NCBI RefSeq assembly: GCF_003334335.1
Contig: NZ_QOWQ01000129.1
From: Escherichia coli
GTDB lineage: Bacteria > Pseudomonadota > Gammaproteobacteria > Enterobacterales > Enterobacteriaceae
DNA: 1,031 bases
Reading direction: 5' to 3' (one strand)
The position numbers were made by a program, and so were the translations under genes. The notes under the pieces are model-generated. The model saw nothing but the letters and a program-made list of their open reading frames with translations. It ran no database searches and was not told the DNA's origin. Below, piece by piece: positions 372 through 1,031 of the stretch (position 1 is its first letter; each line of letters begins with the position of its first letter).

Positions 372-407
372 GGATATATTAAATATTCAGCCGCTGTCCC
401 TGGCCCA
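372..407. other. 36-nt intergenic spacer between the unknown ORF and the endolysin, containing the AT-rich element ATATATTAAATATT
   Basis: Seen directly: positions 374..387 read atatattaaatatt, i.e. atatt (376..380) and atatt (383..387) as a direct repeat separated by aa, including the self-complementary hexamer aatatt (382..387). No AGGAGG-like Shine-Dalgarno lies 5-10 nt upstream of the endolysin ATG on the minus strand (upstream sequence ...ctgaatatttaatatatcc-ATG). No function is asserted. Confidence 0.3.
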
Positions 408-1031
408 CTAAATACGCACTTTAAGATAAGTCAGCCCCGGATGAAGCCAGTAAGCCGGCACTTTTTTAAAGGGTGGAGTATTAAAATCACGAAGAAGAGC
501 CTCCCGCACAATTGCATCCTTATCAGCACCACTGGCCAGCGCTTCAATCTCAGCGGCTACCTGAAGATATCCCATGCAACGGCCAACGCGCTTCATCAGC
601 CCCTGCTTTTTATTGTTCTTCAGGTAATCAATGGCAAATTCAATGAGCTCCTCACTGTGCTGGTGCGATGGAGGTGTTACTTTCCCATTTTCTGAGATGG
701 TTATTTTCCCGGCATCACCGGATACAACAAAGGATGGCCGGTTACACTCCCATTCCAGCTCACTGAAATTATCATTATGAATACTGAAACACTCTGCGAG
801 ATTTCTGCTCATCACTTTCCGACAATAATCGTCAAACGCAGCAAACTGCTCATCGCGGCGTTTTTCTTCAGGCCGCTGAAGATGCTCTTTCAACAGTGAA
901 GCGCAGCTTAGATGCGCCGCGCGATCAAGAATAGTTTCTTTCATTTCATCTGCTGCAAGCACCTCATTTTTTGTTGGGGTGCTTTTTTTCAATTCAGCGA
1001 TATAGCACTCCAGTTTTTCAATGCGTGATTC
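408..1031 (-). CDS. Hypothetical protein of unknown function, soluble, immediately upstream of the endolysin; 5' end probably beyond the window
   Basis: Minus-strand reading frame open for 208 codons from the window edge (1031) to a TAG stop (complement of 408..410). The ORF track starts it at a TTG (complement of 990..992), but the 13 codons upstream (ESRIEKLECYIAE) contain no stop, and the only GGAG upstream of that TTG is ~15 nt away, too far for a good Shine-Dalgarno. The true start is therefore probably outside the window. A stop-free run this long in ~45% GC DNA is unlikely by chance, and it is co-oriented with the endolysin. No hydrophobic stretch long enough for a transmembrane helix, so it is not a holin. 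Five Cys in the 194 residues from the TTG, none in CxxC pairs. I do not recognise the family. Confidence 0.65.
   Translation of the reverse strand, partial: ESRIEKLECYIAELKKSTPTKNEVLAADEMKETILDRAAHLSCASLLKEHLQRPEEKRRDEQFAAFDDYCRKVMSRNLAECFSIHNDNFSELEWECNRPSFVVSGDAGKITISENGKVTPPSHQHSEELIEFAIDYLKNNKKQGLMKRVGRCMGYLQVAAEIEALASGADKDAIVREALLRDFNTPPFKKVPAYWLHPGLTYLKVRI

Follow-up and report, generated by a model that had tools for sequence, protein, structure and literature searches.

The mosaicism of lambdoid phages is already known, and so is the order of genes with which this study is concerned. In the Qin prophage of Escherichia coli K-12, ydfR is annotated between a holin gene (S) and an endolysin gene (R), in the order essQ-ydfR-rrrQ-rzpQ. 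Accessory genes in the late operons of lambdoid phages, such as bor, lom, and stx, are known as morons, a concept of Juhala and Hendrix. Phage modulators of the host's RNase E are also known, such as the gp0.7 kinase of T7 and Dip of phiKZ. K-12 YdfR, which has 103 amino acids and contains DUF1327 only, was found to bind residues 1-597 of RNase E by two-hybrid and pull-down assays and to co-purify with RNA, and its overexpression caused little change in the transcriptome (PMC13232886, 2026). As far as can be told from its citation in the same paper, a screen has linked ydfR to envelope integrity.

We analyzed a window of 1,031 nt (the whole stretch of DNA under study) in which both genes lie on the minus strand. 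At the left is the 5' part (123 codons) of an rrrQ-type SAR endolysin gene, R (1..371, with its ATG at 371-369), which continues past the left end of the window. A spacer (372..407) separates R from the gene upstream, and its length of 36 nt is as originally predicted. The remainder (408..1031) is the last 207 codons and the TAG stop (410-408) of a YdfR-family gene for a 329-aa protein, whose frame is open through the window (1031..411). We call it the slot gene, as it lies in the slot between holin and endolysin. Among complete E. coli genomes, none matches the whole window at 100%; the best match (99.2%) is to E. coli AR_0017 and ten other genomes. The R segment alone has a 100% match in strain 7/2. 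The closest intact relative is the Stx2a phage Stx2_95 (95.4% identity over all 1031 nt). Its slot gene is intact over the full 329 codons; a gap of 4 nt separates its start from the stop of a class II holin gene (71 aa), and one of 36 nt separates its end from R.

The translation of R (371..3) begins with MNTKIKYGLSAAVLALIAAGAPAPDILDQFLDEKEGNHTTAYRDGAGIWTICRG... and covers residues 1-123 of a SAR endolysin that is 177 aa long. The N-terminus includes the Ala/Gly-rich SAR segment GLSAAVLALIAAGAPAP; the part LSAAVLALIAAGAPAPDIL is predicted to be weakly hydrophobic, with a KD(19) score of 1.74 at residue 9. The catalytic residues E35, D44, and T50 have the spacing E-8-D-5-T. R matches the PHROG 7 endolysin (E = 1e-38) and is annotated as lysozyme or rrrQ in related records. 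Having both the triad and the SAR segment, R is, as judged from its sequence, a T4-lysozyme-like SAR endolysin (PF00959 class, of the R21/P1 Lyz type).

Comparison with described systems

The locus resembles K-12 Qin in that ydfR lies in the same slot, with a class II holin gene on one side and an rrrQ-type endolysin gene (85% identical DNA for R) on the other, and encodes the same N-terminal DUF1327 domain. The GC step has the same direction in Qin: GC and GC3 are 0.436 and 0.404 for ydfR, versus 0.506 and 0.500 for rrrQ. However, K-12 YdfR is the N-terminal domain alone (103 aa), whereas the slot protein here (329 aa) adds a linker, a coiled coil, middle modules, and a 115-aa C-terminal domain to that plan. 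K-12 YdfR has nothing that corresponds to the part of the slot gene inside the window. Also, K-12 ydfR overlaps rrrQ by 4 nt, while the slot gene here is 36 nt from R.

In Min27, a 933W-like Stx2a phage, the slot is empty. Its S and R are 90% and 91% identical to those of Stx2_95 at the nucleotide level, and it has the same esterase gene and two small ORFs upstream (ORF47 and ORF48, which are DUF1378 and DUF826 in the annotation of AR_0017). Unlike in the slot-bearing phages, S and R of Min27 are only 4 nt apart (...GGGGAGAGTAA GCTG ATG...); R starts 4 nt past the stop of S, with GGAGAG inside S as its putative ribosome-binding site. Homology between Min27 and the window ends at 344, and the first nine codons of R differ. 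In the slot-bearing phages, the same end of S is followed by the ATG of the slot gene, exactly where R begins in Min27.

The slot gene shares some properties with morons: its two flanking genes are immediate neighbors in a related phage (Min27), and it is apparently dispensable. Its composition is a more equivocal point of resemblance. It is lower in GC than its neighbors, and compared to the flanking gene R, it is lower by 0.08-0.09 in GC and by 0.16-0.21 in GC3, which is significant in the window yet within about 1 SD of prophage genes. Unlike a moron, it has no detected promoter or flanking terminator of its own. Specifically, a simple consensus scan of the coding strand found no sigma-70-like promoter site, which cannot exclude an internal promoter, and no terminator-like site flanking the slot gene, which is a weak test. 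The slot gene is just 4 nt from S and 36 nt from R, and it appears to be integral to the late operon in both transcription and translation. Another difference from morons is that the slot is filled by any of several related alleles, and is not simply a site with or without one particular insertion.

Homology breaks and the alleles of the slot

The two genes in the window were predicted to have different evolutionary origins. Homology to BP-4795, Stx2_12E129, PhiR5_1, and Stx2_499 spans positions 1-377 and ends 6 nt upstream of the ATG of R. This break (377/378, within the spacer) is found in four of six related loci. To the right of it, just fragments of the window recur: 409-756 in Stx2_12E129 (88% identity), 775-863 in Stx2_499, and 823-1031 in PhiR5_1 (98%). 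The two genes also differ in how widely they are distributed. The R segment is present in 4184 of 5426 complete E. coli genomes (about 10,000 loci), versus 907 with any part of 408-1031 and 83 with at least 80% of it. Of the 335 phage records with a match, just one spans the window in full. In alignments of related prophages, the endolysin is conserved while the slot is replaced or absent. Thus, the break at 377 and the unequal distribution bear out the prediction of different histories; this support comes from sequence comparison and not from GC content.

The spacer itself has few features. Across the compared loci, spacers of two unrelated types have only ATATCCATG in common. We did not find a Shine-Dalgarno-like motif 5-12 nt from the ATG of R, and folding of the 36-nt spacer did not identify significant structure (z = 0.06). 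The 3' part of the spacer is AT-rich.

The interval between holin and endolysin has alleles of many sizes: 103 aa (K-12 Qin ydfR), 114 aa (BP-4795), 116 aa (606R7), 161 aa, 211-213 aa, and 329 aa. Some of the 213-aa alleles lack DUF1327 entirely. Whatever the allele, the six S-R intervals that we examined have a GC content of 0.44-0.46, versus 0.54-0.55 for R. All of the homologs of the slot gene that we found are from prophages of Escherichia, Shigella, or Salmonella. Across genomes, the slot gene is often frameshifted or truncated. In AR_0017, it is frameshifted, and it is annotated as a "YdfR family" pseudogene and a hypothetical protein.

Rates of substitution relate the slot gene to R. 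Relative to Stx2_95, the slot ORF has a dS of 0.127 and R one of 0.139; the two have thus been inherited together since that split. Relative to Stx2_12E129, dS is 0.366 for the C-terminal domain of the slot protein and 0.166 for R, a disparity that indicates exchange. The slot gene's omega is 0.22-0.27, while that of R is 0.10-0.13. The slot ORF is therefore a real gene under purifying selection, although somewhat more relaxed than R.

The GC step and its explanations

The original prediction also described a sharp shift in GC content at the gene boundary. Its counts for six blocks of 60 nt were exact: 61.7% (61-120) and 65.0% (301-360) in the endolysin gene, and 46.7% (421-480), 50.0% (481-540), 41.7% (721-780), and 36.7% (961-1020) in the upstream ORF. 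The drop is real, but it is 8.7 points and not about 20, as the chosen blocks were extremes. Across the whole segments, GC is 54.7% in R (1-371) and 46.0% in the slot gene (408-1031). If we consider all non-overlapping 60-nt blocks, there are six in the endolysin, at 48-65% (mean 55.3%), and ten in the upstream ORF, at 37-55% (mean 46.2%). The methodological lesson is that picking extreme blocks more than doubled the apparent step.

The drop is beyond what is expected by chance (P = 0.009, 2x2 chi-square test; P = 0.024, Welch's test on blocks). The best two-segment change point is at position 351, about 20 nt from the start codon of R, with a log-likelihood ratio of 5.6 (the 95th and 99th percentiles from permutations were 4.5 and 6.2). 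The step is locally sharp because the 65% block (301-360), which corresponds to the first codons of R and includes most of the Ala/Gly-rich SAR segment, adjoins the AT-rich 3' part of the spacer. The GC shift is almost wholly at synonymous sites: GC3 is 0.642 in R and 0.433 in the slot ORF, for a difference of 0.21 (bootstrap 95% confidence interval, 0.10 to 0.32), while the difference in GC1+2 is just 0.028 (confidence interval, -0.05 to 0.11). Within 20-codon blocks, GC3 is 0.55-0.70 in every block of R and 0.30-0.60 in the upstream ORF.

To place this step among those of other genes, we used two relatives of the source prophage: the prophage of AR_0017 (52 genes; 99.2% identity) and the complete genome of Stx2_95 (54 genes; 95.4%). 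The standard deviation of gene GC is 0.057 in the AR_0017 prophage and 0.058 in Stx2_95, and that of GC3 is 0.101 in both. The slot gene's z scores for GC and GC3 are -0.92 and -0.91 in the AR_0017 prophage and -0.96 and -0.88 in Stx2_95; those of the endolysin are +0.49 and +0.64, and +0.56 and +0.66, respectively. From R to the slot gene, GC changes by 0.080 in the AR_0017 prophage and by 0.088 in Stx2_95, and GC3 changes by 0.157 and 0.156. Steps at least this large are seen between 10% of adjacent genes for GC and 10% for GC3 in the AR_0017 prophage, and between 9% and 13% in Stx2_95. The largest steps between adjacent genes in these two prophages are 0.127-0.145 for GC and 0.216-0.237 for GC3.

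Among steps between adjacent genes, this one is in the upper tenth, which is unremarkable, yet not negligible. The difference in GC and GC3 is essentially inside the normal variance of these prophages, with the step in the top 9-13%. Both genes are within about 1 SD of the spread of genes in these two related prophages, and the compositional argument for a foreign origin is not supported. Both prophages are broadly bimodal: structural genes have a GC content of around 0.55-0.60, and early, regulatory, or accessory genes are at around 0.40-0.47. The low-GC class contains obvious cargo (stx, nleC, and an ompC-like porin), but it also contains the core genes int, cI, cro, and Q, so cargo cannot be recognized by its low GC. 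On GC alone, accessory genes would not have been distinguished from core early genes. More broadly, mosaic lambdoid prophages normally show GC shifts of such magnitude from one gene to the next, and as a composition signal, this one is of little importance.

We are confident that the window is best explained by ordinary mosaicism, as a recombination joint within an E. coli lambdoid prophage's late operon: a YdfR-family accessory gene, translated from a ribosome-binding site embedded in S, transcribed late, and dispensable for lysis, would occupy the optional S-R slot, with a GC3 step of normal size and a role that may involve RNase E. To the left of the joint would be the widely conserved rrrQ-type R, and to the right, the variable 3' two-thirds of the accessory gene. 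The composition step would be the difference in GC3 between two modules, each of which circulates and recombines independently within the lambdoid gene pool. For its translation, the slot gene would rely on the ribosome-binding site within the 3' end of S, which R uses in phages with an empty slot. It would be transcribed with the lysis genes, and lysis would probably not require it.

We considered whether the low GC3 might instead reflect relaxed selection on translation: a dispensable and weakly expressed slot gene would drift towards AT, while R keeps preferred codons that end in G or C. This is a possibility, albeit a doubtful one. The difference is confined to third positions, the slot gene has a higher omega than R, frameshifted or truncated copies are common, and GC is low in all alleles, which is all as expected from relaxed selection. 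However, the slot gene differs from both the holin gene and R despite sharing a transcript with them, and drift alone does not explain why the boundaries of modules coincide with homology breaks. Relaxed selection is also compatible with a mosaic joint and does not exclude it.

Another possibility is that the upstream ORF belongs to the lysis machinery, serving as a regulator of lysis timing or an antiholin-like factor for the pinholin and SAR endolysin, rather than cargo. The slot gene lies between S and R, is apparently co-transcribed with them, and seems to use the ribosome-binding site at the end of S. Also, many E. coli prophages, among them K-12 Qin, have a YdfR-family gene in the slot, and the link from ydfR to envelope integrity, as it is cited in PMC13232886, would fit. 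However, a KD(19) scan did not identify any membrane segment in the slot protein: the maximum is 1.18 for the full-length protein and 0.75 for the fragment in the window, versus 1.83 for S and 1.74 for the SAR segment of R. No signal peptide was seen by eye. In Min27-type phages, S and R are adjacent and work without the slot gene, and the slot gene is frequently a pseudogene. Distant homologs of the slot gene (35-46% identity) lie upstream of the holin and not between S and R. In one locus (L009), the homolog is between Q and the holin gene and adjoins a DUF4406 gene and HicAB; in another (L010), it is two genes upstream of the holin gene, and S and R overlap. (A third homolog, in L008, is on a short contig with a DUF4406 neighbor and without a holin gene or Q.) We consider a role in lysis very unlikely, and a role in lysis timing is less likely than a role in RNA turnover. 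The original view of the upstream ORF as accessory, and not core lysis machinery, is upheld by the empty slot of Min27, the frequent frameshifts and truncations, and the lack of a membrane segment in the scan.

The slot gene might also be recent foreign cargo from a low-GC donor outside of the lambdoid pool, with the drop in GC being a signature of the donor that has not yet ameliorated. The GC3 of the slot gene (0.43, versus 0.64 for R) and the empty slot in Min27 could be taken this way, as could the rarity of the C-terminal domain, which is found in 5 of 50,697 phage records and in 22 clusters among 1.84 billion representatives. But the homologs that we found are confined to three enterobacterial genera (see above), every slot allele has the same low GC, including ydfR of K-12 Qin, and dS relative to Stx2_95 is the same for the slot gene as for R. 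A GC content of 0.46 is within 1 SD of the mean for genes in the prophage and is common to core early genes. Also, no repeats or mobile-element genes were found flanking the slot gene. Recent foreign cargo is largely refuted by the homolog range, the uniform GC of the alleles, the equal dS, and the spread of GC in prophages, and we consider it highly improbable. The idea of a recent horizontal acquisition does not survive: given the uniformly low GC of the alleles, the presence of ydfR in the slot of K-12 Qin, and the equal dS, the slot gene is probably an old and dispensable resident. From these comparisons, it seems best to regard it as having long resided in an optional slot of the lambdoid pool, where it can be exchanged or dispensed with.

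Finally, the amino acid composition of the proteins (an Ala/Gly/Pro-rich endolysin versus a Lys/Glu/Asn-rich slot protein) accords with the position of the 65% block over the SAR segment and with GC2 (0.447 versus 0.370), but it is refuted as the main cause by the split across codon positions, as the shift is almost wholly synonymous, the difference in GC1+2 has a confidence interval that spans zero, and even the codon block nearest to the 65% stretch (312-371) has GC12 of 0.50 and GC3 of 0.65, so we give this explanation hardly any credence.

Domains and possible role of the slot protein

Our preferred explanation, a mosaic joint with an accessory gene in the slot, includes a plan for the slot protein: DUF1327 at the N-terminus is followed by a coiled coil and shuffled middle modules, and the C-terminal domain is an orphan. 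In the full-length protein of Stx2_95, Pfam identifies DUF1327 (PF07041) at amino acids 1-112 (E = 1.3e-44), and nothing besides. This domain is outside of the window, which begins at amino acid 123 of the slot protein. Homologs have a precomputed assignment to PF07041 and the NCBI name "YdfR family protein." By sequence similarity, the slot protein is a member of the YdfR family. It also matches PHROG 1085; all of its PHROG families are of unknown function. There is no family for it in NCBIfam, and it did not match any of PADLOC's models of defense proteins at E values of up to 0.1. As it lacks a predicted membrane segment, the protein would be soluble and act in the cytoplasm.

In an alignment of the family, whole modules are inserted or deleted, which is module shuffling. 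The modules are the DUF1327 domain, a PEKRP...LRSEKDD linker, the coiled coil, variable inserts, and one of two C-terminal domains: either the 115-aa domain of this window or an unrelated one, as seen in Stx2_499. Within the window, the variable middle region and the coiled-coil segment (ESRIEKLECYIAELKK...) are at 756..1031, and their modules are found piecemeal in other phages. A profile search of the PDB with the full protein matched only GCN4-type coiled coils, at amino acids 113-155; we dismissed these as coiled-coil noise. The AlphaFold2 (AF2) model for the full-length protein (pLDDT 46) was too poor for a fold search. The distant homologs retain both the N-terminal and the C-terminal domain, so the two-domain form looks ancestral and the short forms of YdfR look truncated.

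The conserved C-terminal domain (411..755, about 115 aa) has invariant residues in an alignment and contains the motif GR(C/S)M..LQ.AA ... P.K..W..PG..L. As DNA, this module is shared with Stx2_12E129 (88% identity). The AF2 model of the domain by itself (pLDDT 88, pTM 0.82) predicts a three-stranded beta-meander and four helices. Searching Pfam with the alignment of the domain gave nothing significant, a profile search did not find a sequence match in the PDB, and a fold search did not find a relative outside of its own family, which is tiny, as reported above. Thus, this is a conserved domain that can be folded with confidence and that has no known relative. The protein family to which it belongs is found in Shiga toxin phages, right beside the genes that time the release of the toxin.

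The family's sole experimental lead is the binding of RNase E. A functional analogy to the gp0.7 kinase of T7 and to Dip of phiKZ is possible, although neither is similar to the slot protein in sequence or fold. The slot protein has a putative role with RNase E because K-12 YdfR is reported to bind the catalytic half of RNase E and RNA (PMC13232886). This link is from a 103-aa protein that shares with the slot protein only DUF1327, which lies outside the window. In the mosaic-joint explanation, the most likely role of the slot protein would be as a late-expressed modulator of host RNA metabolism that acts via RNase E. More specifically, the family might modulate the turnover of host RNA late in infection, with the coiled coil for oligomerization and the C-terminal domain as an interchangeable effector or adaptor; this is our best guess, although we would still call it unlikely. 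A more speculative idea, which is rather improbable, is that the long forms of YdfR are modular late effectors: DUF1327 would dock onto RNase E or RNA, swappable C-terminal domains would confer differing activities, and the slot would be a hotspot for swapping modules. Insertion into the slot would also displace R from its ribosome-binding site, which might retune the dosage of endolysin.

One other feature of the window is a terminator-like hairpin at 957..984 on the plus strand, which is antisense to the slot gene. It was identified by the consensus scan and has a 10-bp stem followed by a T-run. This putative terminator, as judged from its sequence, has a predicted RNA folding energy of -18.6 kcal/mol (z = -3.9), and it lies inside the lowest-GC block of the original prediction.

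Initiation and recombination at the start of the endolysin gene

The endolysin gene (R) has no Shine-Dalgarno-like motif 5-12 nt from its ATG (…AATATTTAATATATCCATG; window 372-411). Min27 has an empty slot; its R begins 4 nt past the end of the holin gene (S), and GGAGAG lies upstream of R in the 3′ end of S. The positions concerned are 1871-1876 of the Min27 locus (L013) and 6397-6402 of L001. In the slot-bearing phages, the position held by the R start in Min27 is taken by the ATG of the slot gene. Furthermore, ydfR and rrrQ overlap by 4 nt in the Qin prophage of K-12, which suggests translational coupling. 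Given these three features (no motif of its own for R, the displaced start, and the overlap), occupancy of the slot may alter translation of the endolysin.

The similarity of the window to Min27/933W-type Stx2a phages ends at 344, within R (window 344-371), and the first nine codons of R are not the same in those phages (MSRKLRYGL versus MNTKIKYGL). Judging from these differences, a second recombination joint falls inside R, in its 5′-terminal part.

Domains and distant relatives of the slot protein

The C-terminal domain of the slot protein (about 115 amino acids; window 411-755, minus strand) is modeled confidently by AF2 (pLDDT of 88). It had no matches in Pfam or PDB, and we found no fold relatives beyond prophage proteins of Escherichia, Shigella, and Salmonella. 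Eight of its polar residues are invariant or nearly so: H39, K61, R65, Q71, E75, K103, W109, and R120 (domain numbering). In some family members, this domain is replaced by an unrelated one (L007 3383-3868; protein P0110; …IQKNRERSANSEILDNFLKGTHLASDCFIAHSFGG…FFLKVER). Some 213-amino-acid alleles lack DUF1327 and begin with the coiled coil.

Distant homologues of the two-domain protein (35-46% identity; L009 2639-3945, L008 1089-2377, and L010 134-2339) are encoded upstream of the holin rather than in the interval from S to R. The homologues of L008 and L009 lie immediately 3′ of a DUF4406 gene; L009 also has a HicAB toxin-antitoxin pair nearby. The holin gene of L010 overlaps the lysozyme gene.

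Damaged copies and an antisense hairpin

Damage to the slot gene is frequent. It is frameshifted in the AR_0017 prophage (L002 20408-21396; 99.2% match to the window) and truncated in strain 7/2 (L012 2372-3298), although the R segment of that strain matches the window at 100% identity. Many partial matches at 99% identity in E. coli genomes are unannotated. PhiR5_1 and Stx2_12E129 have a shortened slot gene, and the 300-450 nt from there to R carry an opposite-strand ORF, labeled "DUF1823 containing protein" in PhiR5_1; such ORFs are annotated on the plus strand at L006 2983-3243 and L005 2999-3313. These may be spurious calls on leftover slot sequence.

Within the slot gene and antisense to the late operon, RNA folding predicts a strong, terminator-like hairpin (window 957-984, L001 5957-5984, plus strand): a 10-bp stem followed by TTTTTTT (-18.6 kcal/mol, z = -3.9). 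We know of no convergent transcript there. The original prediction of a GC shift at the gene boundary cited a 37% GC block, part of which is explained by this hairpin.
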